From NCBI GenBank assembly GCA_964577305.1, contig CAZNYS010000008.1:12635-76634 (forward strand): a stretch of 64,000 bases of DNA. Direction: 5' to 3'. Source of the stretch: an uncultured Rikenellaceae bacterium. GTDB lineage: Bacteria; Bacteroidota; Bacteroidia; Bacteroidales; VadinHA17. Positions 2,459 to 39,655 of this stretch are shown one piece after another (the first letter of the stretch is position 1; every line of letters begins with the position of its first letter). The position numbers and the translations under genes are program-made. The notes under the pieces were generated by a model. That model was not told the DNA's origin. It ran no database searches and worked only from the letters and a program-made list of their open reading frames with translations.

Positions 2459-2480
2459 AATTCCATCCTAATAAATGTTC

Positions 2481-3716
2481 TTACTCATTTTCCTGGTTGT
2501 CCGGTTCATCCGGAATAAGATTCAGTTTTTCTGCCAGGTCTATTGTACGCCTGGCCCGTGCAACCACGGGAAGGTCTATCATTTTTGATCCTAAAGATAC
2601 AACTCCCAGTCCTTTCTCCTCAGCTTCCCGAAATGCCTGTACTATCTCAGAAGCTTTTTTTATCTCCTCCGGCTCGGGAGCGAAAGAAGACTTTATTACC
2701 TGTATCTGCCTGGGATGTATACACCCCATTCCTTCGAACCCGAAGGATTTGGATAATTTTGCGGTAGCTTTTAGTGCATCGGTATCAGATACATCAGAAA
2801 ATACAGAATCTATTGGCTGCACCCTTGCTGCTTTAGCAGCATTTACAAGCCTCAGCCGGGCATATAGGGATTCGTTGCCTTCATTTGTTCTCTGCACACC
2901 AAGATCTGCAGTATAATCTTCAAGACCTATGGCTATTGCAACCACATTATTAACTGCTGAGGCTATTTCATAAGCCTTTTCCACTCCCAGGGCACTTTCT
3001 ATAATAGGCATGAAGAAAATATCCTGTTTAATATTATTGTCAGCCAGGATACTATCTGCGCTTTTTGCCAGTTCTTTAAGGTATTCACTGCTTTCACATT
3101 TCGGAACAAGGATAAGATGCACATTATGAGGCAATACACATTTCAGGTCTTCAAAGCCCCTCTCTCCCTGGTTGATCCTGACCATGCGCTCAGCACCATA
3201 GAAATTTACCTGCCTGAGTGCATTCCTGACAAGGAATCTGGCCTCATGTTTTTTAGCAGGCGCCACAGAATCCTCAAGGTCAAGTATAATCCCATCAGGT
3301 GAATGAAGACCGGCATTTAACATCATGCTCGGAGTATTACCCGGCAGATATAGCCTGCTGAACCTGAACCTTTCCCTTTCAGATGGGTACGTATTGCTGT
3401 CTGACATCGCCGGGAGCAGTTCTTTATTTGTTTTAACAAGAGTTTTAACTGCAGCCTCGAGCCTGGCCATATGAACAAATGGCAGGGCACCGGAATCATT
3501 TACATCAAGAAAAGCATGTTTTATATCAAAAAAGCCCAGGCCATCTTTCATCAGCCTGGTAATAGAATTACCATACATTGCTTTGACCCTTGATTCAAGG
3601 TTTATTTTTATCCCTCCACTTGATTTTATTTCAAGTTTTAATTCACAGTCAGATCTTATCCGTGGGCCTGTGTTACCCGTAACAGCAACTTTCTTCATCA
3701 GGCATATTTTGAACAC
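2481..3716 (-). CDS. citE: Fusion of citrate lyase acyl carrier protein (CitD, N-terminal ~95 aa) with citrate lyase beta subunit (CitE, citryl-ACP lyase, HpcH/HpaI fold)
   Basis: The N-terminus (VAVTGNTGPRIRSDCELKLEI...DSGALPFVHMARLEAAV) resembles CitD, including the Ser that carries the prosthetic group. The rest (RLYLPGNTPSMMLNAGLHSPDGIILDLEDSVAP...) is CitE-like. An alternative start is Met7 (nt 3698). Confidence 0.78.
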   Translation of the reverse strand: MFKICLMKKVAVTGNTGPRIRSDCELKLEIKSSGGIKINLESRVKAMYGNSITRLMKDGLGFFDIKHAFLDVNDSGALPFVHMARLEAAVKTLVKTNKELLPAMSDSNTYPSERERFRFSRLYLPGNTPSMMLNAGLHSPDGIILDLEDSVAPAKKHEARFLVRNALRQVNFYGAERMVRINQGERGFEDLKCVLPHNVHLILVPKCESSEYLKELAKSADSILADNNIKQDIFFMPIIESALGVEKAYEIASAVNNVVAIAIGLEDYTADLGVQRTNEGNESLYARLRLVNAAKAARVQPIDSVFSDVSDTDALKATAKLSKSFGFEGMGCIHPRQIQVIKSSFAPEPEEIKKASEIVQAFREAEEKGLGVVSLGSKMIDLPVVARARRTIDLAEKLNLIPDEPDNQENE

Positions 3717-3748
3717 TAATTAATACAAACCTAAAGATACAGAAAAAT

Positions 3749-5092
3749 TTATCCAAGGAAACTCAATAATATTCCTGCTGCAACAGCTGATCCAATAACA
3801 CCTGACACATTCGGAGTCATGGCATGCATTAAAAGGTGGTTTGTCGGGTCAGCTCTGAGGCCTTCATTCTGAACTACCCTTGCACTGTCAGGAACAGCCG
3901 ATACGCCCGCAGCCCCGACGAGTGGATTTATCCTGTTATCTCCCCTGAGGAATAGATTCATAATTTTGGCAAATATTAATCCACCGGCTGTGGCAATCAT
4001 AAACGAGATGGCTCCCAGTATAAAAATCAATAAGGAATCGGGCGTAAGAAACACGTCTGCCTGGGTTGAGGCTCCAACTGTAAGCCCAAGCAGTATTGTT
4101 ACAATATCAACCATTGATGTGCGTGCTGTTTCAGCAAGACGCTTTGTGACCCCTGATTCTTTCAACAGGTTACCAAAGAAAAGCATACCAAGCAGGGGCA
4201 ATGAGCTTGGTGAGATAAATGCTGTAAGCAGTAAACCTATTATCGGGAACAGTATTTTTTCAGTTTTTGACACTGCCCGGGGAGGTTTCATCCTTATTTT
4301 CCTTTCTCTTTTTGAAATAAGAAGTCTCATTATAGGTGGCTGAATAACAGGCACAAGTGCCATATATGAATAGGCAGCAATAGCAATTGGCCCGATCAGG
4401 TTTTTTACGGTTGTTCCGTCAGACAATATATTAACGCCATTGGCCAGTCGCGATGATAGGAATATTGCCGTAGGGCCATCGGCACCCCCAATTATACCTA
4501 TGGCACCAGCTTCTGGAGGAGCAAATCCCAGCATCAGTGCACCGAGGAAAGTAAGGAAAATACCTATCTGTGCAGCTGCACCCAGCATCATCAGGCGGGG
4601 GTTTGAAAGCAGTGATGAAAAATCAGTCATTGCTCCCAGACCCAGGAAGATAAGTGGTGGATACACACCTTTTAACACTCCGAAGTATAAATAATTTAGC
4701 ACGCTGCCCGTCTGGTATATCCCAAGTTGGAGGTTTATATCACCTTCCTGGTAAAAAGGTATATTGCCTATGATAATACCAGTACCGATAGGTATAAGAA
4801 GCAATGGCTCGTAATCATATCTTATAGCCAGGAAAATAAAAAACAGGCCTACAATTATCATTATAAGATGTCCTTTGGTAGCATTCCTGAACCCGGAATA
4901 TTCCCAGAATTTCCTGATACCCCTGGTAGCTCCTTCAGTGTCTGTATCCTGATTTAAAAGTACATTGATTCCAGGATTCGCCACATTTTCAGTCTTATAC
5001 AGGTTCTCCTTTTCTTTTTCCGGTTTAATAAATGCTGTCCAGCTAAGTGACAGTATAATAAGAACACCAATAACAGTTATAAACCTCCTCAT
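3749..5092 (-). CDS. mmdB: Na+-translocating decarboxylase beta subunit (OadB/MmdB/GcdB family integral membrane protein)
   Basis: 447-aa polytopic membrane ORF with typical OadB-family blocks (GIGAMTDF-like GLGAMTDFSSL, GGADGPTAIF). It is in an operon with the carboxyltransferase and biotin carrier. Confidence 0.85.
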   Translation of the reverse strand: MRRFITVIGVLIILSLSWTAFIKPEKEKENLYKTENVANPGINVLLNQDTDTEGATRGIRKFWEYSGFRNATKGHLIMIIVGLFFIFLAIRYDYEPLLLIPIGTGIIIGNIPFYQEGDINLQLGIYQTGSVLNYLYFGVLKGVYPPLIFLGLGAMTDFSSLLSNPRLMMLGAAAQIGIFLTFLGALMLGFAPPEAGAIGIIGGADGPTAIFLSSRLANGVNILSDGTTVKNLIGPIAIAAYSYMALVPVIQPPIMRLLISKRERKIRMKPPRAVSKTEKILFPIIGLLLTAFISPSSLPLLGMLFFGNLLKESGVTKRLAETARTSMVDIVTILLGLTVGASTQADVFLTPDSLLIFILGAISFMIATAGGLIFAKIMNLFLRGDNRINPLVGAAGVSAVPDSARVVQNEGLRADPTNHLLMHAMTPNVSGVIGSAVAAGILLSFLG

Positions 5093-5094
5093 AA

Positions 5095-5517
5095 TCAGTT
5101 CATTTCAATTAAGACCTCCTCCTGGAGTACCGATTGCCCCTGGTTAACCTTTACGGAAATAATTTCACCATCAATTTCTGCTTTTATTTCGTTCTCCATT
5201 TTCATAGCTTCCATCACAATCAGTTTCTGCCCTTTTGATACTTTATCACCTGGTCGTACCAGAACCTGCATTATTATACCGGGCAATGGGGCTTTAATTT
5301 CCAGTTTCGGACCTCCTTCTTTCTTGTCAATATTCTTCTGGGGTTCTCTTAATACAGGACGTACCAGTGTTGGTGTTTTTACGGTCTTCACTTCCTTGTG
5401 TATCTCAACCAGGTATGGTGTCCCGTTGACTTCAAGTTTTGCAATATCACCCTCGATCTCAAGTATCTCCACCTCGTATGTATTGCCACTTATTGTAAAT
5501 TTATAATTTTTCATCAC
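5095..5517 (-). CDS. mmdC: Biotin carboxyl carrier subunit of the decarboxylase (biotinyl/lipoyl domain)
   Basis: The C-terminal biotinylation motif EAMKMENEI is present, and the length is 140 aa. Confidence 0.85.
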   Translation of the reverse strand: MMKNYKFTISGNTYEVEILEIEGDIAKLEVNGTPYLVEIHKEVKTVKTPTLVRPVLREPQKNIDKKEGGPKLEIKAPLPGIIMQVLVRPGDKVSKGQKLIVMEAMKMENEIKAEIDGEIISVKVNQGQSVLQEEVLIEMN

Positions 5518-5525
5518 GCCTTATC

Positions 5526-5894
5526 TTAACGTTCAAGGTTTCTCATATTATACAGTTTGGAATTCCATGGGGAATAGGCTTTTGACACTTTCCTTATGGT
5601 AATCACATTGCTTTCATAATCATGTATCTCATCAAAATACAGATACAGGGCAGTAGCTATAGCAGCGTTCACCTCCCCTGTTAATACTTGTTTTTCAGAA
5701 TCATCCAGGGCTCTGCCTTCCCTTGCAGCCCGGCGGTACATTTTAAATTTGAAAAAAAGTGGCATTATATATCTGAAAACAAGATAAAGGGCAACCAGGG
5801 CTAGGAACACAATCAGGTAGCCTACAACCACTATTATTGTGGCCTGTCTGTCAATACCTGCAAACGGACTTGTCAGAAGCAGAATGGTATTCAT
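5526..5894 (-). CDS. mmdD: Small membrane-anchor subunit of the decarboxylase (OadG/MmdD-like)
   Basis: 122 aa with a single N-terminal TM helix. It sits between the carboxyltransferase and biotin carrier genes, as in mmd/oad operons. Confidence 0.6.
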   Translation of the reverse strand: MNTILLLTSPFAGIDRQATIIVVVGYLIVFLALVALYLVFRYIMPLFFKFKMYRRAAREGRALDDSEKQVLTGEVNAAIATALYLYFDEIHDYESNVITIRKVSKAYSPWNSKLYNMRNLER

Positions 5895-5907
5895 GACCTG
5901 TAAATAT

Positions 5908-7467
5908 TTAAAGAGGTATATTTGAATGTTTTTTCATCGGTCCCGGATCTTTCTTTGTGCTAATTGTACGCAGTGCCCTGATGACCCTGAATCGTGTATT
6001 CCTTGGTTCAATAACATCATCAAGATACCCGTAACGTGCCGCTTCGTATGGATTAGAGAATTTCTCCCTGTATTCTTTCTCCTTGGCAGTTATGAACTCT
6101 GCCTTTTCTTCTTCATTTTCTATTTCTGCTATCTTTTTGCCTTCAAGCACTTCAATGGCTCCCTGTGGTCCCATAACGGCTATCTCGGCTGAAGGCCATG
6201 CATAATTGATATCGCCTCGTAACTGCTTGGAAGACATAACACAGTGTGCTCCTCCATACGATTTCCTCAGTGTTACGGTTACTTTTGGTACTGTTGCTTC
6301 CCCGTAGGCAAACATCAGTTTAGCACCATGCACGATAATACCACCATATTCCTGGCTACTTCCAGGCAGGAATCCCGGCACATCTACAAATGTTAACAGC
6401 GGTATATTAAAGGCATCACAGAATCGTACAAAACGGGCAGCTTTTCTAGATGCATTTATATCGAGCACTCCTGCCAGGAAATTAGGCTGATTAGCTACTA
6501 TGCCAACTGACATACCTCCCATTTTTGCAAATCCCACCACAATGTTTTTTGCATAATTAGAATGTATTTCAAGAAATTCCTCGTAATCAATCACCTTATA
6601 TATTATATCCTTAACATTATAAGGATGATTAGGGTTTTCAGGAATAATGATATTCAAATCATCTTCAAGCCTGTCTATAGGATCATCGCAGTCAGAAAGA
6701 GGAGGATCCTCCATATTATTCTGTGGCATGTAACTCAATAGTTTCCTGATCAACAGTAGTCCTTCTTCTTCATCTTCAACAACAAACTGCGCAACACCTG
6801 ACCTTGTGGAATGGATCCTGGCGCTACCCAGGTCTTCGATGGATATATCCTCACCTGTAACTGCTTTTGTTACTTTAGGTCCTGTAACAAACATATAACT
6901 GCTCTGTTCGCTCATTATGACAAAGTCAGTTAAAGCAGGTGAATAAACAGCACCGCCTGCACATGGACCGAAAATGGCTGATATCTGTGGTATAACACCT
7001 GAAGCCAGGATATTTCTTTCAAATATTTCAGAATAACCGGCAAGGCTTCTCACTCCTTCCTGTATTCTGGCTCCCCCACTATCGTTGATTCCTATGACAG
7101 GCGCACCAATTTTCATAGCCTGATCCATCAGCTTACATATTTTGTTGGCAAAGGTTTCAGAGAGAGAACCACCAAAAACTGTAAAATCCTGGGCAAATAC
7201 ATACACCACGCGGCCATCAATTGTACCATGGCCAGTAACAACACCATCTGAAAGGTATTTCTTGTCTTTTAATCCAAAATCATCGGTTCGGTGAGTAACA
7301 AACATATCATATTCTTCAAAGCTGCCTTCATCAAGAAGTATTTCTATCCTTTCACGGGCTGTCATCTTACCTTTTGCATGCTGGGAGGCTATCCTTTTTT
7401 CTCCACCCCCCATCTTTGCTTTTTCGCGCAGCTCAATTAGTTGCCTTATTTTATCCTGGCTGTCCAT
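5908..7467 (-). CDS. mmdA: Methylmalonyl-CoA decarboxylase alpha subunit (acyl-CoA carboxyltransferase, PccB-like)
   Basis: 519 aa. Carboxyl-transferase family blocks are present ([42 protein letters not shown]). Confidence 0.9.
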
Positions 7468-7485
7468 CTTTTAGAAATATTAAAA

Positions 7486-7899
7486 TTATTTATCAGATTT
7501 ATCTTCACATAGCTCTGTAAGTACACCGAAAGTAGACTTTGGATGTATAAAAGCTATATCAATGCCTTCAGCACCTTTTCGTGGTTGTGTGTCAATCAGC
7601 CTTACACCTTTTGATTCTGCCTCTTTAAGCTTTGTAGCCAGTCTGCTAACTGCAAAAGCTATATGATGGATGCCTTCTCCCTTTTTCTCAATAAATTTTC
7701 CAATAGGCCCTTCCGGATCGGTTGATTCAAGCAACTCAATCTTCGTCTGGCCAACCCTGAAAAATGCCGTTCGTACTTTCTGATCAGCAACTTCTTCAAT
7801 GTTATAACACTTCAGGCCCATGATGTTTTCATAGAAAGGTATGGCCTGTTCAAGACTATTTACAGCAATACCAATATGCTCAATATGTGTTGGTTCCAT
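7486..7899 (-). CDS. mce: Methylmalonyl-CoA epimerase (VOC/glyoxalase fold)
   Basis: 137 aa with HIGIAV...GEGIHHIAF motifs. It is the first gene of the mmd array. Confidence 0.82.
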   Translation of the reverse strand: MEPTHIEHIGIAVNSLEQAIPFYENIMGLKCYNIEEVADQKVRTAFFRVGQTKIELLESTDPEGPIGKFIEKKGEGIHHIAFAVSRLATKLKEAESKGVRLIDTQPRKGAEGIDIAFIHPKSTFGVLTELCEDKSDK

Positions 7900-8076: not shown

Positions 8077-9636
8077 TCAGAACGGGAACTCTTCCATTTC
8101 CTGTACCTCTAGCTCTTTCTCTTCAGGTTTTTTTGCATCCTGGTGAACAGGGTTTCCGTCAACGAATATTGCTTTATAGGGTTTGGTGGGGCATGCATAT
8201 TCACAGGCGCCGCATCCAACACATATCTCATTGTTTATTTCAGGAATAACCAGGTTACCTATATAAGGCACCATTTGAACTGCTTTTGTTGGACAATTCT
8301 CTGAACAGGCCCCACAGTCTGTTCTTTCTGTTTCAACAATACAATTTTCCTTTATAAAATTAACCTTTCCGATCTGTGTAAGCTTTTTTGCTTCCAGTGC
8401 AAGGGGAAGTAATGCACCCGAGGGGCAGACTTCAGTACACCTGATACATTCATAATTACAGAATCCCTTATGATAGTCCATTCTTGGCTGCATGATGCCT
8501 GCAATACCATATTCATTTACAGACGGTATAATAACATTATTCGGGCATGCACTTACACACAGGGAGCAGGCAGTACAATAGTTGTTGAAATGTTCAATAC
8601 TTATTCCGCCGGGAGGGCAAGCCGGTGATGTGCGGTTTTCAGGTACTGTAGATTCTTTCTTCGGAACAGGTGTATCCTGTGCCTTTAAAGTACGGGGTAT
8701 GAAAGCGAGCAAAGCAAGTATACCTGTTATAAAACCTCTCTTATCCTGATCAGGCTCAGTGTCAGTTTTTCCTGGGCCAATTTTCCATAACCCATACGAT
8801 ATAGCCTTATCGTTGCATACAGTAAGACAGTTAAAGCATGTCACACATCTGCTCAGGTCAACATTCTCATTTTTAAAATCAATACATGATGCCTTACATT
8901 TGGCAGCACATAGCCCGCAATGAGTACAGCTCTCTTCATCAATCCTGATTCTTAAGACTGATAGCCTTGATATAAAACCAAGGAAAGTACCCAGGGGGCA
9001 TACAGTATTACAATAAAGACGACCTCTCGTAAATGACATATAGCTTACCAGGCCCAGCAACAAAACAGGAATAATAAAGGCAGCAAAAGGAATTTTAATG
9101 AAATCTACTTTAAATATGGTATAGTTATCAAACAATGCTGATACAGCAGCGATAAGGTTATTACCCATTATTACAACAGGTTGAAGCAAATATGTTGCAG
9201 ACCGCCCAAAAATACTGTAGGGATCCAGCAGGCTAATGAGAAATACAGATCCTGCCAGCATCACTATAAGGGTCAGTGCAAGGATTACATACCTGAGTAT
9301 GTTATAGGGCTTCCCATAGCCAAAGCGGCGGAATTTTCCCTTAAACCTGCCCCCAACCCTGCTTATTATGTCCTGGTAAATACCAAGGGGGCAGAGAACA
9401 GAACAATAAGACCTGCCGGTTAGTATTGTCAGTACCAGCACGAAGACAAATCCTGCTGATGCAAGCACCTGTATATTCATAAAATCGAGTACTGAAGGCA
9501 CAAATTGCAGGAAAAGGACAATATTAAACCATTTATCAGGGATAATTTGCCTGAAATCTATGAATGATAGTGTTATTATTACAAATACTAAAACCGCAAG
9601 TATTATCCTGACTTTACGTAAAGCTGAAGATCTCAT
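8077..9636 (-). CDS. Membrane-bound polyferredoxin (NapH/MauN-like N-terminal membrane domain plus multiple 4Fe-4S ferredoxin motifs)
   Basis: Several TM helices carry CSVLCPLG and CNTVCPLG motifs. These are followed by CxxCxxCxxxC(P) clusters (CTHCGLCAAKC, CTACSLCVSACP, CIRCTEVCP, CGACSENCP, CVGCGACEYACP). Confidence 0.8.
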   Translation of the reverse strand: MRSSALRKVRIILAVLVFVIITLSFIDFRQIIPDKWFNIVLFLQFVPSVLDFMNIQVLASAGFVFVLVLTILTGRSYCSVLCPLGIYQDIISRVGGRFKGKFRRFGYGKPYNILRYVILALTLIVMLAGSVFLISLLDPYSIFGRSATYLLQPVVIMGNNLIAAVSALFDNYTIFKVDFIKIPFAAFIIPVLLLGLVSYMSFTRGRLYCNTVCPLGTFLGFISRLSVLRIRIDEESCTHCGLCAAKCKASCIDFKNENVDLSRCVTCFNCLTVCNDKAISYGLWKIGPGKTDTEPDQDKRGFITGILALLAFIPRTLKAQDTPVPKKESTVPENRTSPACPPGGISIEHFNNYCTACSLCVSACPNNVIIPSVNEYGIAGIMQPRMDYHKGFCNYECIRCTEVCPSGALLPLALEAKKLTQIGKVNFIKENCIVETERTDCGACSENCPTKAVQMVPYIGNLVIPEINNEICVGCGACEYACPTKPYKAIFVDGNPVHQDAKKPEEKELEVQEMEEFPF

Positions 9637-9645
9637 CCGGGCAGC

Positions 9646-10566
9646 TTACATTTTAATTCTGTGGATATTCAGGTTCTCAATATCCATTCTCCCTATGCCC
9701 TTCTCATTGGCCAGGGGAATATAATCAATCTGTTCTGGACTCATCTTAATCATACTTGCTGCAGCAGTATCGGCAGCCAGCATATCAGTTGATATGATCT
9801 GTGCTTTCATAACCATCGAATCGCTTACAGATGTACCCTGTGGCCCATGTCGCATCATTACCCTGTAGCAGTCAATAATATTAAGTGTTGGCTTCTTTTC
9901 AAATGTAGCATAGTCAGCTATACACTGATGCAGGTTATTTGAATGCCAGAATCCCCTATCCCATACATTACCCATGAGATTCTTCATGGTAGCTGTCATC
10001 TTTGTACTTGAATGATGTTTTAAGACAGGAACATTAATGAATACATCCGATTCAAGAATCAGTTCATGTACCTTTGCCTTCTTGAGTATACTTGCTCCCG
10101 GTATAGTGACTTCATGATAATAGTTTTCAGTATTGGCAGGTACTATCTTTGCCCCGGCGTCCTTAGCAGCTTTCTCAATCCCTGAGTTTTTATATGATTT
10201 TACCCAGTTGGAGATGGTATGATCAAAAACATATACTTTACCGGCACCTGCCCTTATGCAATGTTCAACAATACGTTTAATAAGCAATGGATTCGTATTG
10301 GCTGCCATCTCAGGAGTCTTGTCCCATCCTATATTTGGTTTAATAACTACAGTCTGGCCTTTCTTAACAAAATTTGTTATGCCTCCCAGTGCACTGATTC
10401 CTTTGTCGAACATAGCATCTGGCTCACCACCCATTATAGCAACCATATCATAAGTTGTTGCTGAAGCTGGTGATGCCCATAGTTTGTTATATCCTCCCAT
10501 GCTGAATGCTGCCCCAGCGGCTAAACCAGCTCCGACTGACTTTATGAAAAAATCTCGCCTTTTCAT
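9646..10566 (-). CDS. Tat-signal DUF362-family protein, function unknown
   Basis: The N-terminus MKRRDFFIKSVGAGLAAGAAFS is a twin-arginine signal. The body resembles DUF362 proteins, which are commonly paired with 4Fe-4S proteins. There is a 9-nt gap to the polyferredoxin gene. Confidence 0.65.
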   Translation of the reverse strand: MKRRDFFIKSVGAGLAAGAAFSMGGYNKLWASPASATTYDMVAIMGGEPDAMFDKGISALGGITNFVKKGQTVVIKPNIGWDKTPEMAANTNPLLIKRIVEHCIRAGAGKVYVFDHTISNWVKSYKNSGIEKAAKDAGAKIVPANTENYYHEVTIPGASILKKAKVHELILESDVFINVPVLKHHSSTKMTATMKNLMGNVWDRGFWHSNNLHQCIADYATFEKKPTLNIIDCYRVMMRHGPQGTSVSDSMVMKAQIISTDMLAADTAAASMIKMSPEQIDYIPLANEKGIGRMDIENLNIHRIKM

Positions 10567-10695
10567 TTTTCATTTATTTTTTTACAAATCGACTACAAAT
10601 ATTCAAATTAAATGTATCACTGCAAAATAGTATTATTATTATTACAATTAATATGCTTAATATTATCTTAGTGGTTGTTTTATGATACATAACTC

Positions 10696-11874
10696 ATGAA
10701 TACACTCTATTACGAATGTTTTTCAGGGATTAGTGGGGATATGAACCTTGGTGCAATGATAGATCTCGGGATTGACAAGGATTATCTTCTAGGCGAGCTG
10801 AAGAAACTGAATCTTGAAGGTTGGAACATGCGAGTCGAAAAAGACCAGCGTCATGGTATTACAGGTACAAAAGTAACTGTTGTACTTACAAAGGAAGAGA
10901 AGAAACACCGTCATCTATCTGATATTAATAATATTATTGAGAAAAGTAGCCTGGACCCGGATGTTAAAACAGTTACACTTCAAATATTCAGGAAAGTTGC
11001 TGAAGCTGAATCTAAAGTACATGATATACCTCTTGAAAAAGTACACTTTCATGAGGTGGGTGCTGTTGACTCAATAATAGATATAACAGGAGCAGCCATA
11101 TGTTATGTCAAACTGGGGATAAAAGACATTATTGTATCCCCCATAGAACTGGGTAGTGGGTTTGTAAAATGTGCACATGGTTTACTTCCGGTTCCTGCAC
11201 CTGCTACAGCGGCGATTCTGGAAGGTATTCCTGTACACAAAGGTAAAGTGGACTTTGAAGCAACTACACCTACAGGAGCAGCAATACTAAGTATTCTGGG
11301 AACCAGGTTTGAAAGTGAACTGAATATGAAGGTTCACAGAACCGGTTATGGTATAGGACAGAGAAATAACCCGGAATTGCCAAATGTGCTGAGAGTTTAC
11401 CTGGGGGAGTCTGCAGGTTTGGAACCAGGAGGGCATCTTTCGTACCTGATAGAGAGCAATATTGATGATATGAATCCTGAAATGTACGAGAACCTTGTAA
11501 ATAAGTTGTTCGAAGCAGGCGCTGCAGATGTATTCCTTTCAAATATTATTATGAAAAAGTCCCGTCCGGGAATAAAAGTCAGTATAATTTGTCAGGCCGG
11601 TAATATTGAAGCTATTAAAGATATTCTATTCCTGGAATCTACAACACTGGGCCTGAGGATTATTCCGTTTGACAAACACACCGCCAGCAGGCAAATAAAT
11701 ATAATAGATACACCATACGGCCCTGTAACAGTTAAATATGCCTATCACGACAATAAACTGATTTCTGCAAAACCTGAAATATCAGATTGTATGGCTATAG
11801 CAGAAAAGAACAAACTGCCTCTTGTTGAGGTTTATAATAATATCATTGCAGTTATTCATGCCGGTAAAAAATAA
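10696..11874 (+). CDS. larC: Nickel-pincer cofactor biosynthesis protein LarC (Ni insertase, DUF111 family), single fused ORF
   Basis: N-terminus YYECFSGISGDMNLGAMIDLG, plus HFHEVGAVDSIIDI, both typical of LarC. Confidence 0.85.
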   Translation: MNTLYYECFSGISGDMNLGAMIDLGIDKDYLLGELKKLNLEGWNMRVEKDQRHGITGTKVTVVLTKEEKKHRHLSDINNIIEKSSLDPDVKTVTLQIFRKVAEAESKVHDIPLEKVHFHEVGAVDSIIDITGAAICYVKLGIKDIIVSPIELGSGFVKCAHGLLPVPAPATAAILEGIPVHKGKVDFEATTPTGAAILSILGTRFESELNMKVHRTGYGIGQRNNPELPNVLRVYLGESAGLEPGGHLSYLIESNIDDMNPEMYENLVNKLFEAGAADVFLSNIIMKKSRPGIKVSIICQAGNIEAIKDILFLESTTLGLRIIPFDKHTASRQINIIDTPYGPVTVKYAYHDNKLISAKPEISDCMAIAEKNKLPLVEVYNNIIAVIHAGKK

Positions 11875-12661
11875 AGTAAAAATATTATGCAGATCTTTCA
11901 GTGACTCGGATAATATCCTGGTAGCATTCTCGGGGGGAGTAGACAGTTCTTTCCTGTTATATGTGCTCAGGATGTTCTCAGGGGCAAGAGTATCAGCGAT
12001 AACAATAAAAACACCTTACATACCTGAATGGGAGATAGATGAAGCAAAAAGTTTCTGTAAATCCTTCAATATAAATCATGAGATTATTGAATTACCCCTG
12101 CATAAGTCTATCATTATGAACCCACCCGACCGGTGTTACCTGTGCAAATCAATATTATTCGGACAGATAAAAGCATATGCTGCCAAAAAGGGATTCAATA
12201 TTATTGCAGACGGCAGTAATGCAGATGATAAGAAGGACTATCGGCCGGGAATGGAAGCGCTTAAAGAGCTTGAGATAAGAAGTCCATTGCTCGAATCGGG
12301 TTTCAGTAAGGAAGAGATAAGGAAACAGCTCAGGGAATACGGCCTGGAAATATGGGACAAGCCTGCCTATGCATGTCTGCTTACACGTATCCCCTATAAT
12401 ACAAGGATTGATAAACGTGATCTCAATATCATAGAAGAAGGAGAAAGATTACTTCACAGCCTTGGTTTCAGAGGTGCACGCGTTCGCCTGCATAACAATA
12501 CAGCGCGTATAGAACTCAGTCCCGGATATTTCAATAAGATACTTGAAGATAAGGTCAGGAAAAAAATAATACGTTCATTCAAAGCCCACGGCATCGAATT
12601 TATCAGTCTCGATCTTGAAGGATACCGTATGGGCAGTATGAACCCAAAAAACATTAAATAA
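11858..12661 (+). CDS. larE: LarE, ATP-dependent sulfur transferase (PP-loop ATP pyrophosphatase)
   Basis: The PP-loop AFSGGVDSS is present. I prefer the ATG at 11858 over the TTG at 11822 listed in the track. It overlaps the larC end by 17 nt. Confidence 0.85.
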   Translation: MPVKNKVKILCRSFSDSDNILVAFSGGVDSSFLLYVLRMFSGARVSAITIKTPYIPEWEIDEAKSFCKSFNINHEIIELPLHKSIIMNPPDRCYLCKSILFGQIKAYAAKKGFNIIADGSNADDKKDYRPGMEALKELEIRSPLLESGFSKEEIRKQLREYGLEIWDKPAYACLLTRIPYNTRIDKRDLNIIEEGERLLHSLGFRGARVRLHNNTARIELSPGYFNKILEDKVRKKIIRSFKAHGIEFISLDLEGYRMGSMNPKNIK

Positions 12662-12666
12662 ATAAT

Positions 12667-13416
12667 ATGAACAGGGAAGGACTAAAAAAAATACTGGAGG
12701 AACTCTCTGAAGGAAAGATAAATGTAGATGATGCAATTGAAAAATTAAAGTACTTTCCATTCAGTGATCTTGGCTTTGCCCGCATTGATCATCATCGTGA
12801 AATACGGACAGGATATCCTGAAATAGTGTTCTGCGAAGGTAAAACCATTGAGCAGGTAAGGGATATTTTCAAACATATATCTGATACGGGACAGAACGTT
12901 ATAGGCACGAGGGCAAGTAAGGATAAATTCAATGCGGTACATTCAATAGCCCCCGAAGCATTGTGGCATGAAGAAGCCAGGATAATAAGTATTATCAGGG
13001 AGAAACATAAAATTGCCGACTCTCCTATTGCAGTTATTACTGCAGGTACATCAGATATACCTGTTGCTGAAGAAGCTGCTGTTACCTGTGAGTTGCTGGG
13101 CAACAGGGTTACCCGTATTTATGATGCCGGGGTAGCAGGAATACACAGGCTCCTGGATCAGCTACCCGAAATAAAGAAATGCAGGGTTGTAATCGTTATT
13201 GCCGGTATGGAGGGAGCACTTGCAAGTGTTGTGGGCGGACTTATTGACAAGCCAGTCATAGCAGTACCGACAAGTGTAGGGTATGGTGCAAATTTCAAGG
13301 GAGTATCAGCCCTCCTCGCTATGCTTACCAGCTGTGCATCAGGAGTAAGCGTGGTAAATATTGATAATGGTTTTGGAGCAGCTTTTAATGCTAGCATGAT
13401 TAACCAGTTAGAATAG
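12667..13416 (+). CDS. larB: LarB, pyridinium-3,5-biscarboxylic acid mononucleotide synthase (PurE-like NaAD carboxylase/hydrolase)
   Basis: 249 aa. It has a PurE-like core (IAVITAGTSDIPVAEEA...VVIVIAGMEGALASVVGG) with the LarB-type N-terminal extension. Confidence 0.88.
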   Translation: MNREGLKKILEELSEGKINVDDAIEKLKYFPFSDLGFARIDHHREIRTGYPEIVFCEGKTIEQVRDIFKHISDTGQNVIGTRASKDKFNAVHSIAPEALWHEEARIISIIREKHKIADSPIAVITAGTSDIPVAEEAAVTCELLGNRVTRIYDAGVAGIHRLLDQLPEIKKCRVVIVIAGMEGALASVVGGLIDKPVIAVPTSVGYGANFKGVSALLAMLTSCASGVSVVNIDNGFGAAFNASMINQLE

Positions 13417-13419: not shown

Positions 13420-14037
13420 GTGGACCGGTACTTATTGATTCTCTCAACAGCATATTATCCACCTGTACAGTACTTTGCCGAGATAATAAAATCAGGGAAG
13501 GTACTTATCGAACAGCATGAGACCTACCCTAAACAAACATACCGTAACCGTTGCTATATTTATTCAGCCAACGGTGTTCTACCTCTGAGTATCCCGGTAG
13601 AAAAAGGTAGTTTTCATAAAGTTAAACTCAGGGATATTAAAATTGATAATTCCAGGAAATGGCAAAGAGAGCATATACATGCTATAAGGTCAGCATATAA
13701 TTCATCTGCATTTTTTGAATTTTATGCTGAGCAGGTATTGCAGCCCCTTGAATCAAAATATGAGTATCTCATTGACCTTAATATGGATATACTGGATATA
13801 TTATTCAAAATCCTGGAAATGAATATTACTGCAGAAAAAACAGTATCATTCATTAAAGAATACGGGGATGATTGCCGGGACATGAGATATAGCCTGTCGC
13901 CGAAATATGGAATCACTTATAAGCCCTGTGAATATTTCCAGGTTTTCAGTCCCGTTCACGGCTTTCAGCCAAACCTGAGCATTATTGATCTCCTGTTTAA
14001 TATGGGACCAGAAACCTGGTCGTGCCTCAGAACCTGA
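13420..14037 (+). CDS. WbqC-like family protein, function unknown
   Basis: GTG start 3 nt after the larB stop. The N-terminus AYYPPVQYFAEI...QTYRNRCYIYSANGVLPLSIPV fits the WbqC-family pattern. Confidence 0.65.
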   Translation: MDRYLLILSTAYYPPVQYFAEIIKSGKVLIEQHETYPKQTYRNRCYIYSANGVLPLSIPVEKGSFHKVKLRDIKIDNSRKWQREHIHAIRSAYNSSAFFEFYAEQVLQPLESKYEYLIDLNMDILDILFKILEMNITAEKTVSFIKEYGDDCRDMRYSLSPKYGITYKPCEYFQVFSPVHGFQPNLSIIDLLFNMGPETWSCLRT

Positions 14038-15597: not shown

Positions 15598-16905
15598 CTA
15601 TCTCCTGCCTGAGCTTCTGGAACTCGTCGAGGAAGAACTTCTTCCACTGGATGATGACGACCTGCCACTGCTTGATGATACAGAGCTTGAGCGGCCGCTA
15701 CTCACGGATGAAGATCTGCCTACAGAAGAGACACTGCTAGATCCCCTGGAGGACCCCATTGAGGATGATCTTGAATTATTAATAACACTCCTTCCTGATG
15801 TTGAAGAGCGGTTAATAACTGACCTGCTTGTATTTCCAGAGGATGATCTGTTAATGATTGACCTTCCTGACGAACTGTTAATGTTTGTGCTGCTTGATGA
15901 GCGGTTATTTACTACACGTCCTGCGTTACTGTTGGTAACGGTACTGCTTCTACTGTTAGAATTATTATAGGTAGGACGGGTGGTCAGCCTTGGATTTGTA
16001 TATGTTGGCCTGTATGTCCTGCTCTGAGTATTATACTCAGGTTGTGAAGCAGCACGTGTTGTGGTATTAACCTGTGTCCTTCTGTTCAGGCTTGAACTTA
16101 CTGATCTTTCCTGAGGATTAGTGGCATTTCTGACATTTGTATTGCTCGACACCACTGTCTGATTTATCCGTCTGCTGCCTTCGGTACTTCTTGCATTATC
16201 AGATACAGTGGCTGTTGTTCTCCTTGATGATCCTATACTTGATCCGGATCTGTTCCCGGAAGAACTAACATACCTGTTAGACAATGTACTGTATGAACTT
16301 CTTCTTCTTACCGGAGTTGTATAATAATTATTATTACTGTAATACCCAGTATAATATGGCGACATCCATGAGTAGCCATATCCCCAGTACGAGTATGGGC
16401 TGTAATAATAAGAACTACCCCAATAAGGTGAAAAGAACGGATCATAGTAATATGAATAATAATAGGGGCTGTAGAAAGGATCCCACATCCTGTATGAATA
16501 ATACGGGAATCCGTATGTTAATCCATACCTGAATCCGTAATAGAAAGGATCTCTCCAATACGGATCAAAGTAATTACCATAAAAACGGTTCAGGTGGCTT
16601 GCATAAGATACCCTGTCATAATAATCAAAGGCACTGCTTCTATCACTATCATAATACATTAGATCCTTATCATATTCAGCCGGATCGAGATATTCATCTG
16701 CAACCAGTGTATCAAGGTTAAACTGGTCTTCAATTGCTGAAATTGATTCATATGCCTGGTCAGGCACTCCTGCATCCTGCACATATATTTCTCTTGGAGC
16801 AGGTGTATAATAAAGATCATCATATTCACCACTCATATAAAGCGATGAAGAACAACTGCTTAGAAGAAATATTGCTAAAACTGCTATGTAAAGATAAGTT
16901 TTCAT
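15598..16905 (-). CDS. Lipoprotein with a Tyr/Trp/Pro-rich central region and a Ser/Arg/Asn-rich basic tail; no recognised family
   Basis: Lipobox LLSSC; centre ...YYYSYYYDPFFSPYWGSSYYYSPYSYWGYGYSWMSPYY...; tail ...GRSSSVSSSSGRSSSSSGRSSSSTSSRSSGRR. GGAGGT lies 5 nt before the ATG. Confidence 0.7.
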   Translation of the reverse strand: MKTYLYIAVLAIFLLSSCSSSLYMSGEYDDLYYTPAPREIYVQDAGVPDQAYESISAIEDQFNLDTLVADEYLDPAEYDKDLMYYDSDRSSAFDYYDRVSYASHLNRFYGNYFDPYWRDPFYYGFRYGLTYGFPYYSYRMWDPFYSPYYYSYYYDPFFSPYWGSSYYYSPYSYWGYGYSWMSPYYTGYYSNNNYYTTPVRRRSSYSTLSNRYVSSSGNRSGSSIGSSRRTTATVSDNARSTEGSRRINQTVVSSNTNVRNATNPQERSVSSSLNRRTQVNTTTRAASQPEYNTQSRTYRPTYTNPRLTTRPTYNNSNSRSSTVTNSNAGRVVNNRSSSSTNINSSSGRSIINRSSSGNTSRSVINRSSTSGRSVINNSRSSSMGSSRGSSSVSSVGRSSSVSSGRSSSVSSSSGRSSSSSGRSSSSTSSRSSGRR

Positions 16906-17048: not shown

Positions 17049-17075
17049 AAAAAAAAGCAGGCTGTTAACGCCTGC
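17049..17075 (-). terminator. Rho-independent terminator overlapping the stop codon of the 17065..18168 gene
   Basis: The minus strand reads GCAGGC-GTTAACA-GCCTGC followed by T8. The 5' stem arm encodes the final ...GRR-stop. Confidence 0.7.
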
Positions 17076-18168
17076 CTCTTGTTGTTGATGTGGATTTGCT
17101 ATTGTTCCCTGAACTTGAATTGCGCCTTACAGCTTTACTTCCTGAACTCCGGTTACCTGAGCTTTTGACTGCACTGCTGCGTGAGTTTCTGCTGGTTGAA
17201 CTCCTAACTGCACTGTTGCTTGAGCTTCGGCCGGATGAACTTCTAACTGCACTGTTGCGTGAGCTGCTGCTGGTTGAACTTCTAACTGCATTGCTGCTTG
17301 AGCTTCGGCCGGCTGAACTTCTAACTACACTGTTGCGTGAGCTGCTGCTGGTTGAACTTCTAACTGCATTGCTGTTGTTAGTTCTGCCTGTTGAGCTTCT
17401 TACGACAGTGCTGCGTGAAGAAAGATTACCAGTATTATTCCTGTTATTGGTCCGTTCAAGGTTATCTACATTAACCTGTGTTGTCCTTCTGCTATTGTCA
17501 GACCGTACTACATCTGTTGTACGTTGAACGGTATTCCTGTTATAACTTGTCCTGTTTGCACTGGACTCAACACGCCGGCTGTCTTCAGGTCTACTGTAAG
17601 ATGCATACTGTCGTGACGGATAGCGATAATAACTATCGTGGCCAATGTATTTCTGGTAATGATGTTGGGACCTGTAATAGTTATTTGCATAATAGTAGTT
17701 ATTATAGATATGATAATGGTTTCTTATCCTTACCCTGTACCTTACTGTTGGGTATGACCAGTAATAATAATCCGGGTAATAATCCCAGTAGTAATAATCA
17801 GGATAATATCCACCATAGTAAACCCATGGATCGTACCATCCGGTATAATAATATGGATATCCAAAAGTCCAACCAATTCCAAAAGTTGTATTACCGGCAT
17901 ATATACTAATACCCCAGGATGCAGGACGGTAATTATACCAGTATGACTCTGTATAAACCGGGGCATAAAATCCGAAAGATACATATGAACTATGGAAACG
18001 TCTTATTCTGGAGGCGTAGTAGAAATCATGGCCTCTTACCGATGCAGTAACAAGCACACCCGGGCTTGTTTTGTAGTAATCGACCTCTGCAGGTGCCTCC
18101 GCTGATTGTAGTGGAGCTGTTATTGCTAACATTCCTGCTATTAATCCGGTAAAATATTTTGCTTTCAT
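17065..18168 (-). CDS. Secreted paralogue of the Tyr-rich / Ser-Arg-rich protein
   Basis: It has a signal peptide (..APLQSAEA). 26 of 63 residues are Tyr in GYPYYYTGWYDPWVYYGGYYPDYYYWDYYPDYYYWSYP...NNYYYANNYY. The tail consists of 13-aa RSS...AV repeats and ends in GRR like its neighbour. Confidence 0.7.
   Translation of the reverse strand: MKAKYFTGLIAGMLAITAPLQSAEAPAEVDYYKTSPGVLVTASVRGHDFYYASRIRRFHSSYVSFGFYAPVYTESYWYNYRPASWGISIYAGNTTFGIGWTFGYPYYYTGWYDPWVYYGGYYPDYYYWDYYPDYYYWSYPTVRYRVRIRNHYHIYNNYYYANNYYRSQHHYQKYIGHDSYYRYPSRQYASYSRPEDSRRVESSANRTSYNRNTVQRTTDVVRSDNSRRTTQVNVDNLERTNNRNNTGNLSSRSTVVRSSTGRTNNSNAVRSSTSSSSRNSVVRSSAGRSSSSNAVRSSTSSSSRNSAVRSSSGRSSSNSAVRSSTSRNSRSSAVKSSGNRSSGSKAVRRNSSSGNNSKSTSTTRGRR
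17128..17400 (-). repeat. In-frame tandem repeat, about 7 x 39 nt (13-aa RSSxxxxxxNxAV units, also readable as 3 x 78 nt)
   Basis: Residues 257-347 read RSSTGRTNNSNAV / RSSTSSSSRNSVV / RSSAGRSSSSNAV / RSSTSSSSRNSAV / RSSSGRSSSNSAV / RSSTSRNSRSSAV / KSSGNRSSGSKAV. Near-identical DNA copies are visible around 17200-17350. Confidence 0.8.
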
Positions 18169-23854: not shown

Positions 23855-24639
23855 TTATCGGTCATTCCTGTATTATTACGAAGCCTGTCAAAAAGATCGT
23901 GTAATTCTTTCTCCTCGTTATTTTCCAGCATCCTTATCAGTTCATCCAGCCTGCTGCTTATTTCGTAAAGCTTATCAACCGAATATTTATTCAGCAGGAT
24001 TCCACTCAGCAGGTAATCATCTTCTGACAGTAAACCGTGTGCTATTTTAAGATGGTTTCTGAAAGTAGTTCCCGGTACTTCCAGCTTTTTCATGCATGCA
24101 GAAAATACGATGGTTGAACTGAATGGTATTGACAGTGAGTAAGCAATTGTTTTGTCATGCTCAACGAAATCATATTCATATATCTTCAGGCCCAGGTCCC
24201 CGTAAAAAGTCCTAAAAAAATCCGTTCCCTCCGGGTCTGATTCTGAAATTATTATAGCGCTTTCTCCCTGCAATTCCTTAACATTTCCAAAGGTGGGTCC
24301 AAACATTGGATGGGTCGAAACAAATCTGAAACCACATCCTGCATAAAACTCTGCCAATCCGTTTTTCACCGATGCTATATCAGAGATAATGCAATCTTCA
24401 GGTATATAAGGCAAGATCTGATTATAGGCTGTTATCGTTTGTTTTAATCCTGTGGCATTTATCAGTAGTTGAGGTCTGAAATCGGCTATTTCATTTAATT
24501 CCTTAAACCTAAATGTATTAAACAGGTATTTCAATTTGCGTGGATCATAATCATAAACTCCCACATCATAATCAAGGCAAAGTGTCTCGGCAAGCCACGA
24601 ACCCATATTGCCAGCTCCTGCTATCAGTATTCTTTCCAT
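23851..24639 (-). CDS. tyrA: Prephenate dehydrogenase
   Basis: It has an N-terminal Rossmann motif IAGAGNMGSWLA and the HPMFGP motif. It is the last gene of the aromatic operon. Confidence 0.8.
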   Translation of the reverse strand: MERILIAGAGNMGSWLAETLCLDYDVGVYDYDPRKLKYLFNTFRFKELNEIADFRPQLLINATGLKQTITAYNQILPYIPEDCIISDIASVKNGLAEFYAGCGFRFVSTHPMFGPTFGNVKELQGESAIIISESDPEGTDFFRTFYGDLGLKIYEYDFVEHDKTIAYSLSIPFSSTIVFSACMKKLEVPGTTFRNHLKIAHGLLSEDDYLLSGILLNKYSVDKLYEISSRLDELIRMLENNEEKELHDLFDRLRNNTGMTDN

Positions 24640-25632: not shown

Positions 25633-25636
25633 CTTC

Positions 25637-27929: not shown

Positions 27930-27969
27930 CGGTAGATATTTAATCCTTAAAGGTATTAAATCGAATCAA

Positions 27970-29049: not shown

Positions 29050-29056
29050 AATGTAG

Positions 29057-39560: not shown

Positions 39561-39629
39561 ACAAATTTGACACTTGATCTCTCAAGAACAGGACTTAAAC
39601 TAAAATTTTGAACTTATGATACTTAGTGA

Positions 39630-39637
39630 TACTTTTG
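39630..39637 (+). promoter_or_regulatory. -7 promoter box TACTTTTG for xerD
   Basis: Exact TAnnTTTG match, 19 nt upstream of the ATG at 39656. It lies inside the GTG-extended ORF of the track, which argues for the ATG start. Confidence 0.5.
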
Positions 39638-39655
39638 GATAATCATAATTACAAA

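Follow-up and report, generated by a model that had tools for sequence, protein, structure and literature searches.

A predicted Tat-exported DUF362 protein and its polyferredoxin partner as candidate nickel-pincer nucleotide clients

The 64,000-nt window analysed here (positions 12,635-76,634 of contig CAZNYS010000008.1, assembly GCA_964577305.1, from an uncultured Rikenellaceae bacterium; Bacteroidales; VadinHA17) carries larC, larE and larB, and raises the question of which enzyme uses the cofactor, nickel-pincer nucleotide (NPN), that their products would make. Nickel-pincer clients of the AKR and cyclodeaminase types exist, and NPN-dependent enzymes other than LarA are recognised as a class that is still open (PMC13524815). 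A preliminary description of this DNA had proposed the neighbouring DUF362 and polyferredoxin genes as the client module, an idea that drew on adjacency and Tat logic alone.

Layout of the locus and the NPN pathway

The open reading frames of that description were all recovered, as were the 9 nt that separate the polyferredoxin gene from the DUF362 gene upstream of it and the 129-bp gap between larC and the divergent DUF362 gene (Table 1). This gap, which has no Rfam match, is the control region shared by the two genes. The same compact divergent layout is found in 49 related loci, with gaps of 88-349 bp that contain recurrent elements.

Table 1 Features of the lar-DUF362 locus (window coordinates).
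Feature	Position	Strand	Description
Polytopic polyferredoxin, 519 aa	8077..9636	-	Fer4_5 + Fer4 families; NapH-like part, TMD5, NapG-like part
Tat-type motif inside the polyferredoxin, with TMD5 of low hydrophobicity (DKRGFITGILALLAFIPRTLK)	8683..8745	-	(R/K)-R-x-F-(I/L/V)
DUF362 protein, 306 aa	9646..10566	-	Candidate NPN client; PF04015, E=2e-49
H185-x9-K195-x12-H208 segment of DUF362 protein	9943..10014	-	His (putatively catalytic), Lys (putative NPN tether), His (putative Ni ligand)
Twin-arginine signal peptide of DUF362 protein, residues 1-36	10459..10566	-	MKRRDFFIK...h-region...ASA
Divergent control region, 129 bp	10567..10695	.	Common to larC and the DUF362 gene
larC	10696..11874	+	CTP-dependent nickel-inserting cyclometallase, LarC1 + LarC2 domains; PF01969, TIGR00299, NF052512
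larE	11858..12661	+	ATP-dependent sulfur insertase, [4Fe-4S]-type; PP-loop SGGVDS, CXXC-C motif CYLC...C; TIGR00268
larB	12667..13416	+	NaAD carboxylase/hydrolase, first NPN synthesis step; NF033503
WbqC-like gene	13420..14037	+	PF08889, E=4e-34; 3 nt after larB

The three lar genes are intact, as had been claimed, and each product scored above its curated equivalog cut-off in profile searches: LarC reached 220 bits for LarC1 (cut-off 90) and 134 bits for LarC2 (cut-off 50), with E=1.2e-141 against PF01969, while LarE reached 285 bits (cut-off 150) and LarB 303 bits (cut-off 175). The 17-nt overlap of larC and larE holds if larE starts at the ATG at 11858; the reading frame is also open from an alternative TTG at 11822. 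The sulfur-donor site of LarE proteins is either a single Cys or a CXXC-C arrangement that binds a [4Fe-4S] cluster (PMC9283937), and the SGGVDS, CYLC and distal Cys of the window protein indicate the [4Fe-4S] type. Judged by these profiles and motifs, the cytoplasmic NPN pathway, from LarB through [4Fe-4S]-type LarE to LarC, is complete at the locus. The WbqC-like gene, which the preliminary description did not mention, is probably co-transcribed with larCEB.

The DUF362 protein and its relation to LarA

PF04015 was the only Pfam match reported for the DUF362 protein, even at a maximum E of 10. The protein matches neither the Lar_N (PF09861) nor the LarA_C (PF21113) model, and by these profiles it is not a canonical LarA (DUF2088). 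DUF362 and LarA nevertheless belong to one Pfam clan, CL0471 (PMC11770544), a kinship that had been overlooked; the claim that the window lacks larA therefore holds for canonical LarA only, because the DUF362 protein is itself a LarA-clan member. The Pfam DUF362 HMM matches residues 82-245 of genuine LarAs (P0275-P0277; E=1e-5, 25.7-26.1 bits) and gives 22.5 bits for an L. plantarum-type LarA, the cut-off being 24.

The proposed comparison with LarA was made by profile and by structure. Profile-profile comparisons were not significant (E 0.13-0.21). A Foldseek search of the PDB with the AF2 model (pLDDT 94.1; residues 1-40 low, structure beginning at residue 41) returned the LarA family for all of its best 19 matches (probability 1.00; E 1e-6 to 2e-4; 213-290 aligned columns), with TMq values of 0.39-0.52 (0.43-0.52 in 18 of the 19). 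Matches beyond these dropped to E>1e-3 and a TM of about 0.2, and the fold relatives in the PDB are only NPN enzymes or apo forms of them. On the evidence of its model, the DUF362 protein is a LarA-fold homologue.

H185, K195 and H208 are 100% conserved in 164 loci and >90% conserved in relatives at 33-55% identity. The H-x9-K spacing equals that of LarA H174-x9-K184, and H185/K195 align with H174/K184 in three weak alignments (E 0.015-0.21); in L. plantarum LarA, K184 tethers NPN by a thioamide. When the LarA profile was made more diverse in a fourth run, the best local match shifted to another region. H208, invariant in the 164 loci, lies 13 residues after K195, and the Lys-to-His spacing among LarAs varies from 16 to 26 (PMC12611868). 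The equivalence of K195 with K184 and of H208 with H200 is putative.

The Tat signal recognised in the preliminary description was confirmed: the protein starts MKRRDFFIK...ASPASA, and the elements of such a signal (S/T-R-R-x-F-L-K motif, h-region and AxA site) are recognisable in MKRRDFFIKSVGAGLAAGAAFS...ASPASA. R3 and R4 are present in 159/159 loci in which the N-terminus is covered, the remaining 5/164 being without it. The RR motif is thus invariant in a protein without a Cys motif for an Fe-S site, a combination which implies that the cofactor is loaded, or the protein folded, in the cytoplasm. These features predict that the DUF362 protein is Tat-exported.

The polyferredoxin partner

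The N-terminal part of the polyferredoxin consists of four NapH-like TMs with CxxxCP pairs at residues 78 and 209, followed by predicted cytoplasmic [4Fe-4S] motifs (CxxCxxCxxxC) at 237 and 264. The C-terminal NapG-like domain has four [4Fe-4S] motifs, whose 16 Cys (residues 354-482) are each 99-100% conserved. The CxxxCP motifs of the preliminary description form two pairs, and its "at least five" CxxCxxCxxxC clusters proved to be four canonical and two variant four-Cys motifs, giving six predicted clusters. Among 125 homologues, 29 of the 30 Cys are at least 98% conserved (28 at ≥99%, C251 at 98%) and C340 (26%) is the sole variable one. The internal Tat motif, K299-R300 in the window protein, is similarly retained, position 299 being R or K in 124/125 homologues and R300 occurring in 122/125 (RR in 70, KR in 54). 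It precedes TMD5, which has a Kyte-Doolittle value of 1.45 compared with 2.3-2.7 for TM1-4 and is followed by R315 and K318.

A Sec/Tat dual-targeted class of NapH-NapG fusions with a periplasmic ferredoxin domain has been validated experimentally (PMC5449189), and these motifs place the polyferredoxin, as a predicted member, in that class. Given the conserved internal Tat motif in such a fusion, the four [4Fe-4S] clusters should therefore face the periplasm. The gene adjoins or follows the DUF362 gene in 79/80 genomes. In one distant relative (L081), DUF362 is accompanied by genes for a NapH-like protein, a Tat-signal ferredoxin, TatA and TatC, and the free-standing homologue begins MRRITRREFLKF. 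Assignment of the polyferredoxin as a NapH/NapG orthologue was rejected (NapH, 75.7 vs 213 bits; PRK09477, 71.6 vs 234; NapG, 42 vs 269), and its NapF match was likewise below the cut-off.

A candidate NPN client and its alternatives

We consider, with a probability of about 0.5, that the DUF362 protein is an enzyme that depends on NPN, is loaded in the cytoplasm, leaves it by Tat and is connected to the quinone pool. The locus would then couple a complete cytoplasmic NPN pathway with a two-gene extracytoplasmic redox module. Apo-DUF362 would fold in the cytoplasm and receive NPN there, probably as a thioamide at K195, while H208 would complete the coordination of nickel; in LarA these roles belong to K184 and H200. 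The loaded protein would be exported folded via Tat and dock on the periplasmic NapG-like domain of the polyferredoxin, where the tethered pyridinium-nickel cofactor could perform hydride chemistry on a periplasmic substrate, in a compartment without NAD(P). By way of the polyferredoxin, electrons would pass to or from the menaquinone pool, by analogy with NapGH-NapA or MsrQ-MsrP. For NPN there is, to our knowledge, no precedent for coupling a hydride cofactor to Fe-S clusters one electron at a time, which counts against the proposal. The pair is a testable candidate for the first NPN-using enzyme outside the cytoplasm.

The proposed linkage with larBCE was borne out in part. A larC or larB gene is found no more than 10 kb from DUF362 in 35/80 genomes and 53/93 informative loci, and adjacency holds in 100% of the window's DUF362 clade (about 43 loci) and requires at least five state changes on the tree. 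On a GC-0.66 contig, DUF362-polyferredoxin-larC-larE-larB forms a rearranged, self-contained operon (L031) with only these five genes before polA; its DUF362 nests among low-GC Bacteroidales on the tree, consistent with co-transfer of the pair with the lar genes. However, adjacency is limited to two DUF362 clades, and the 10 kb around most DUF362-polyferredoxin pairs are free of lar genes, including those of Ignavibacteriota, Desulfobacterota, high-GC relatives of L031 and relatives at 39% identity. At three loci (L024, L034 and L049) the lar genes are gone from an otherwise syntenic site while the H185/K195/H208 triad is intact. Conservation of lar adjacency exceeds that of ordinary synteny within lar+ loci by a small margin only (WbqC 33/35, FadL-like 28/33, MMCE 30/38), and no more than about two independent linkage events can therefore be taken as certain.

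These limits agree with another reading, which we regard as possible but the less likely: larCEB and the DUF362-polyferredoxin pair are neighbours because a single Bacteroidales lineage inherited them so, NPN is not used by DUF362, and the cofactor serves a client elsewhere in the genome, which could be a LarA homologue, an AKR of the NphT type, a cyclodeaminase of the NPAD type or another enzyme. Besides the two-clade distribution, the housekeeping flanks (kept almost as often) and the many lar-less pairs, it is favoured by the AKR and cyclodeaminase clients already known and by the absence of larE from 9/39 lar+ loci, which shows that lar genes may lie apart from their partners. It would nevertheless make the LarA-like fold and invariant Lys/His motif a coincidence, and the five-gene operon argues against it. 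LarA homologues are moreover rare in Bacteroidota (9/192 organisms, 4.7%), and the surroundings offer no other client of the known types. Profile searches found no Lar_N, LarA_C, AKR or OCD (ornithine cyclodeaminase) domain in the 50 ORFs of the window or in 10 kb beyond its start, leaving the 74 kb around the lar genes without an alternative client of LarA, AKR or OCD type. tblastn with LarA 5HUQ found nothing in the window, tblastn for LarA only found none in the 164 related loci, and the recurrent neighbours in related loci include no LarA, AKR or OCD. The client proposal thus keeps the LarA fold, the invariant H-x9-K...H, the Sec/Tat fusion class, the L031 operon and the rarity of LarA on its side, against a linkage confined to two clades, close to ordinary synteny and lacking in most pairs.

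It is rather improbable that the LarA fold here holds a different cofactor. The DUF362 protein would then act independently of the lar genes as the periplasmic subunit, catalytic or substrate-binding, of a polyferredoxin complex linked to quinol, and its conserved His/Lys/His/Asp site would accommodate a simple metal ion or some other ligand. The triad shows the same invariance with and without adjacent lar genes, the residue equivalence with LarA is unproven, the protein fails both LarA models, and DUF362 is a very large family (5091 representative clusters at E<1e-3) that may extend beyond the range of the lar genes. Such a subunit, however, would lack a Cys motif for an Fe-S site while carrying an invariant Tat signal that calls for a cofactor inserted in the cytoplasm, its only PDB fold relatives would be NPN enzymes or their apo forms, and the L031 operon would be left unexplained. 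That the WbqC-like protein is the NPN-related partner (client or fourth maturation factor) and DUF362 a bystander is very unlikely: the gene shares a transcription unit with larCEB and follows larB in 33/35 related lar+ loci, but it is missing from the L031 operon, L054 and L131, stays beside lepB and dapB where lar genes are absent and next to DUF362 in lar-less L024, L034 and L049, belongs to a family otherwise found in polysaccharide loci and yielded no connection with nucleotide cofactors by fold or by motif. Its link to the lar genes is possibly only syntenic.

As an NPN-dependent redox module, the pair would follow the logic common to the NapGH/NosGH quinol dehydrogenases and MsrPQ, in which a quinol-interacting membrane subunit and a periplasmic Fe-S relay serve a Tat-exported, cofactor-loaded catalytic subunit; its catalytic partner, however, is neither a molybdoenzyme nor a copper enzyme, and the NapH, NapG and NapF NCBIfam scores are far under cut-off. 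The closest parallel to the polyferredoxin is PFD (Q1NSB0, MLMS-1; Tooke et al. 2017, PMC5449189), which likewise has four NapH-like TMDs that carry CxxxCP motifs, clusters on the cytoplasmic side, a TMD5 of weak hydrophobicity preceded by a twin-arginine-type motif and followed by positive charges, and four periplasmic [4Fe-4S] motifs. The window protein differs in having K-R rather than R-R and two predicted cytoplasmic clusters rather than three, and the PFD study made no mention of a DUF362 partner.

The DUF362 protein resembles the LarA superfamily (DUF2088: PF09861 + PF21113) in Pfam clan, Foldseek fold, HMM cross-match and invariant residues recalling the His-x9-Lys then His of LarA (H174/K184/H200), and its gene adjoins larBCE. 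It differs in its mature length (about 270 aa vs about 424 aa), its twin-arginine export signal, its obligate polyferredoxin partner and its lack of Lar_N/LarA_C matches, and is of a kind without a characterised member. Relative to the catalytic H108 and H174 of LarA, the position of its putative second catalytic His (116) varies, being His in 105/164 loci and Asn in 55/164. NphT (an NPN-dependent aldo-keto reductase with a TIM barrel) and the NPAD-dependent ornithine cyclodeaminase have folds unrelated to DUF362 and are cytoplasmic, without an electron-transfer partner; NphT nevertheless holds its cofactor with a His/Lys pair, as is proposed for DUF362, and both non-canonical clients were found via larBCE adjacency in larA-less genomes.

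The most economical reading of the locus, with a probability of roughly one half, is that the DUF362 protein is loaded with the nickel-pincer nucleotide cofactor (NPN), exported by the Tat pathway and exchanges electrons with menaquinone through a NapG-like domain of its polyferredoxin partner.

Lar genes and kinship of the DUF362 protein with LarA

The open reading frames of larC, larE, larB, DUF362 and the polyferredoxin lie exactly where the preliminary description had placed them. A gap of 129 bp separates larC from two genes on the opposite strand, DUF362 and then the polyferredoxin. The absence of larA from the window was also borne out, with no Lar_N or LarA_C domain detected by a Pfam scan of all window ORFs of at least 90 aa and by tblastn with L. 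plantarum LarA (query sequence identical to PDB 5HUQ), which covered the window and all related loci. The same Pfam scan found no aldo-keto reductase or ornithine cyclodeaminase domain in the window ORFs, and none of these four domains occurs in the 10 kb preceding the window.

Features of the window, with neighbouring genes
Feature	Position	Strand	Observation
Citrate lyase and decarboxylase run	896-7899	-	Operon-like; citrate lyase (CitF, ACP-CitE fusion), methylmalonyl-CoA epimerase, OAD_beta-type sodium-pumping decarboxylase with biotin carrier and carboxyltransferase; typical propionate or citrate fermentation equipment
Polyferredoxin	8077-9636	-	519 aa; 9 nt after DUF362
Internal Tat-type motif	8683-8745	-	DKRGFITGILALLAFIPRTLK; between the polyferredoxin halves
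DUF362 protein	9646-10566	-	306 aa; PF04015
larC-DUF362 spacer	10567-10695		Both spacer elements only as degenerate versions
larC	10696-11874	+	Full length; far above curated NCBIfam equivalog cut-off
larE	11858 or 11822 (start) to 12661	+	Full length; far above NCBIfam equivalog cut-off
larB	12667-13416	+	Full length; far above NCBIfam equivalog cut-off
WbqC-like gene (PF08889)	13420-14037	+	Starts 3 nt past larB stop
435-aa ORF	15598-16905	-	Lipoprotein-like; Tyr/Pro-rich middle, very long Ser/Arg-rich low-complexity tail; no Pfam match
ORF	17065-18168		Adjoins and resembles the 435-aa ORF
Aromatic amino-acid operon	23851-30205	-	Contiguous; prephenate dehydrogenase-like, chorismate synthase, EPSP synthase, dehydroquinate synthase, DAHP synthase-chorismate mutase fusion, aminotransferase
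Recombinase and permease	39626-41951	+	XerC/D-type tyrosine recombinase, then ArsP_1-family permease fused to heavy-metal-associated (HMA) domain

The DUF362 protein begins with a typical twin-arginine signal (MKRRDFFIK...ASPASA), and the public annotation of the gene, from an uncultured Bacteroidales MAG, reads only 'DUF362 domain-containing protein'. Since PF04015 and PF09861 both belong to Pfam clan CL0471, DUF362 serves as the outgroup for LarA trees in the LarA-superfamily literature (PMC11770544). The Pfam DUF362 model matches genuine lactate racemases over residues 82-245 (E = 1e-5; 25.7-26.1 bits against a gathering score of 24 bits), a region that takes in H108, H174, K184 and H200, and scores 22.5 bits on L. 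plantarum-type LarA. An AlphaFold model built on an alignment of 100 sequences with 33-82% identity (pLDDT 94.1) was compared with 350,542 PDB chains, as the preliminary description had proposed, and its best 19 matches all belong to the LarA family (E 1e-6 to 1.7e-4, probability 1.00, 213-290 aligned columns), with a TMq of 0.43-0.52 in 18 of them and 0.39 for 9q3k_A. These matches include LarA from two species, the malate racemase Mar2, the Isosphaera enzyme, single-histidine LarA homologues and 4NAR; beyond them, only generic Rossmann-like folds followed (TM ~0.2). A model from a shallower alignment of 40 close homologues (pLDDT 55) was discarded, and sequence searches of the PDB with DUF362 (phmmer, hmmsearch) returned nothing relevant.

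On the strength of the DUF362-model matches and the fold search, the protein is a compact LarA-fold homologue. DUF362 is thus not unrelated to LarA, a point added to the preliminary description; it is not a canonical LarA either, because it matches neither Lar_N nor LarA_C. The family comprises more than 7,900 close homologues and 5,091 representative clusters, and no informative fused domain was found on its long representatives.

The polyferredoxin partner

The polyferredoxin follows DUF362 in 79 of the 80 species genomes, the sole exception being truncated by a contig end, and also in relatives at 39% identity. Its N-terminal half is NapH-like, with four strongly hydrophobic helices, CxxxCP past TM2 and TM4 and two predicted cytoplasmic ferredoxin motifs, and its C-terminal half has four cluster motifs made up of 16 cysteines. 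Where at least five CxxCxxCxxxC clusters had been counted before, we found four canonical and two variant four-Cys motifs, together with the two CxxxCP pairs. Conservation in 125 homologues reaches at least 99% for 28 of the 30 cysteines and 98% for C251; C340, at 26%, is the one variable position.

Between the two halves lies a Tat-type motif with the consensus (S/G)-(R/K)-R-x-F-(I/L/V) followed by ~15 hydrophobic residues in the 125 homologues, of which 122 keep R300. The window protein has K-R at this site, as do 54 homologues, whereas 70 have R-R. The hydrophobicity of the segment is 1.45, compared to 2.3-2.7 for TM1-4, and positive charges lie downstream. At L081, a related locus at 39% identity (L081:10001-13069), a Tat-DUF362 gene is followed by a 221-aa NapH-like protein without a ferredoxin domain, a 197-aa Tat-signal polyferredoxin, TatA and TatC; the two polyferredoxin halves are thus separate genes there, the free ferredoxin starts MRRITRREFLKF, and tatA and tatC end the operon.

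The 'polytopic polyferredoxin' is a NapH-NapG fusion in which, as experiments showed, Sec deals with helices one to four and Tat then inserts the fifth (Tooke et al. 2017, PMC5449189), a paper in which DUF362 is never mentioned. The internal motif marks the window protein as a Sec/Tat dual-targeted fusion of this kind, and from membership of this class the four C-terminal clusters should face the periplasm, the compartment of exported DUF362. Because its NapH and NapG NCBIfam scores are far under the cut-off, the polyferredoxin probably works like NapGH without being its orthologue.

Linkage of DUF362 and polyferredoxin to the lar genes

A larC or larB gene lies within 10 kb of a close DUF362 relative in 35 of 80 species-level genomes, and within that distance in 53 of the 93 loci with enough flanking sequence. 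On the DUF362 tree, lar adjacency is 100% in the window's clade (~43 loci) and recurs in a second clade, with lar-less lineages between the two and at least five state changes by parsimony. The compact divergent larC/DUF362 layout occurs in 49 loci with recurrent spacer elements. The strongest single case is L031, a GC-66% contig binned as Competibacteraceae (L031:10001-15725), which carries a same-strand operon of DUF362, polyferredoxin, larC, larE and larB, then polA; its DUF362 nests among low-GC Bacteroidales sequences, and the five genes appear from this placement to have moved horizontally as one unit. No second same-strand operon of this composition was found in a metagenome scan anchored on L031.

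Several observations count against the link. The L031 relatives with downstream sequence have no lar genes, lar adjacency is absent in Ignavibacteriota, Desulfobacterota and more distant clades, and relatives at 37-44% identity gave contexts that were either short contigs or without lar genes. In three further loci (L024, L034, L049) a WbqC-like gene abuts DUF362 in place of larCEB. Ordinary synteny is almost as conserved in lar-positive loci: the WbqC-like gene follows larB in 33/35, a FadL-like gene is kept in 28/33 and MMCE in 30/38. No more than about two of the linkage events can clearly be called independent. Inherited synteny, with the NPN client encoded elsewhere, would fit the conserved flanking genes and is the strongest competitor of the client reading; with the L031 operon on the other side, we consider it less likely than that reading.

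Adjacency is also an imperfect measure of gene content. Nine of 39 informative lar-positive loci (L007, L008, L011, L015, L023, L048, L059, L074, L077) lack larE between larC and larB, and since larC abuts larB there, these genomes must encode the essential sulfur insertase elsewhere. The lar genes are thus dispersed in some genomes, and non-adjacency does not imply genomic absence.

As to the spacers, an element GCTAATATAC(A/T)ATTTACA is present at a conserved position in at least 19 of 49 larC-DUF362 intergenic regions (L003, L010, L017, L020, L044 and others), and the DUF362 start is preceded, ~48 nt upstream, by a TTGTATTTTT(C/G) box. These elements could be a shared operator or promoter. 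An Rfam search gave no match, and a sigma-70 scan did not rise above chance (27 sites, 23.9 expected).

Putative cofactor site and comparison with known systems

In LarA, K184 is the tether of NPN; it lies ten residues past the catalytic H174, and the last nickel ligand is H200. The spacing in DUF362 is H185-x9-K195, then H208; in LarA homologues of solved structure the Lys-to-His spacing is anywhere from 16 to 26 (PMC12611868). Positions that are >90% conserved in 100 relatives (down to 33% identity) include K76-P77-N78, D174, K183, H185, K195, N196, G199, R204, H208 and D232, and across 164 loci from genomes and metagenomes there is no variation at H185, K195, H208 or either signal-peptide arginine. 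In three independent alignments of weak statistical support, H185 falls on H174 and K195 on K184. By hhalign, none of three LarA profiles gave a significant match (E 0.13-0.21), and with the most diverse profile the best local match moved to another segment; for these reasons we do not claim residue equivalence, which is a good lead, not a result. A DUF362 protein that keeps the LarA fold with a different cofactor would suit the shifting alignments but is improbable.

A third candidate, the WbqC-like protein as the real NPN partner, is very improbable: its gene, 3 nt after the larB stop and hence probably the fourth of the lar transcript, stays beside DUF362 in the lar-less L024, L034 and L049, where lepB and dapB flank it, and we found no PDB relatives and no functional literature for WbqC.

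Under the client reading, LarB, LarE and LarC would make NPN in the cytoplasm, where DUF362 would fold and take up the cofactor, with K195 as the probable attachment site and H208 as the probable nickel ligand. Such cytoplasmic loading would explain the invariant Tat signal on a protein without an Fe-S motif. The holo-protein would then dock on the periplasmic NapG-like domain and swap electrons with menaquinone while acting on a substrate.

NPN is made without LarA in hundreds of prokaryotes, where its users are an explicit open question, and only two non-LarA clients are known, the NPAD-dependent ornithine cyclodeaminase and the aldo-keto reductase NphT; both came from larBCE adjacency, in a screen from which LarA-related neighbours had been excluded on purpose (PMC13524815). 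LarA homologues occur in 9 of 192 Bacteroidota of the COG set. Our literature search found no paper tying DUF362 to NPN use, export or a polyferredoxin, and a possible connection to the nickel cofactor of cable bacteria was examined and rejected. The locus nominates a large, highly conserved family with a LarA-like fold and an intact Lys/His signature as NPN clients. More tentative is the proposal that Tat-type DUF362 proteins form a new nickel-pincer branch, the first extracytoplasmic one and the first wired to respiration (through the Sec/Tat NapH-NapG polyferredoxin), in which covalently tethered NPN would stand in for NAD(P) in the periplasm; by extension, some of the 'missing' clients in the many larBCE-positive prokaryotes without larA could be DUF362 proteins. 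The hypothesis is unusually easy to test, with a cofactor adduct of ~+450 Da upon LarBCE co-expression as a simple read-out. If true, organometallic nickel chemistry would reach the periplasm, a hydride-transfer cofactor would be joined to an iron-sulfur and quinone electron-transfer chain, and DUF362 and its Sec/Tat polyferredoxin partner would gain a function in abundant anaerobes (Bacteroidales, Ignavibacteriota, Desulfobacterota).

Two further features can be compared with characterized proteins. Residue 116 of DUF362, past the second core β-strand, is His in 105 loci and Asn in 55, which recalls the His-to-Asn swap at a catalytic position in a LarA subfamily, although the residue affected in that subfamily is H174. 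In the window LarE the PP-loop reads SGGVDS, and a CXXC-C motif makes the enzyme one of the catalytic [4Fe-4S] type known from Thermotoga maritima, unlike the sacrificial LarE of L. plantarum (PMC9283937).
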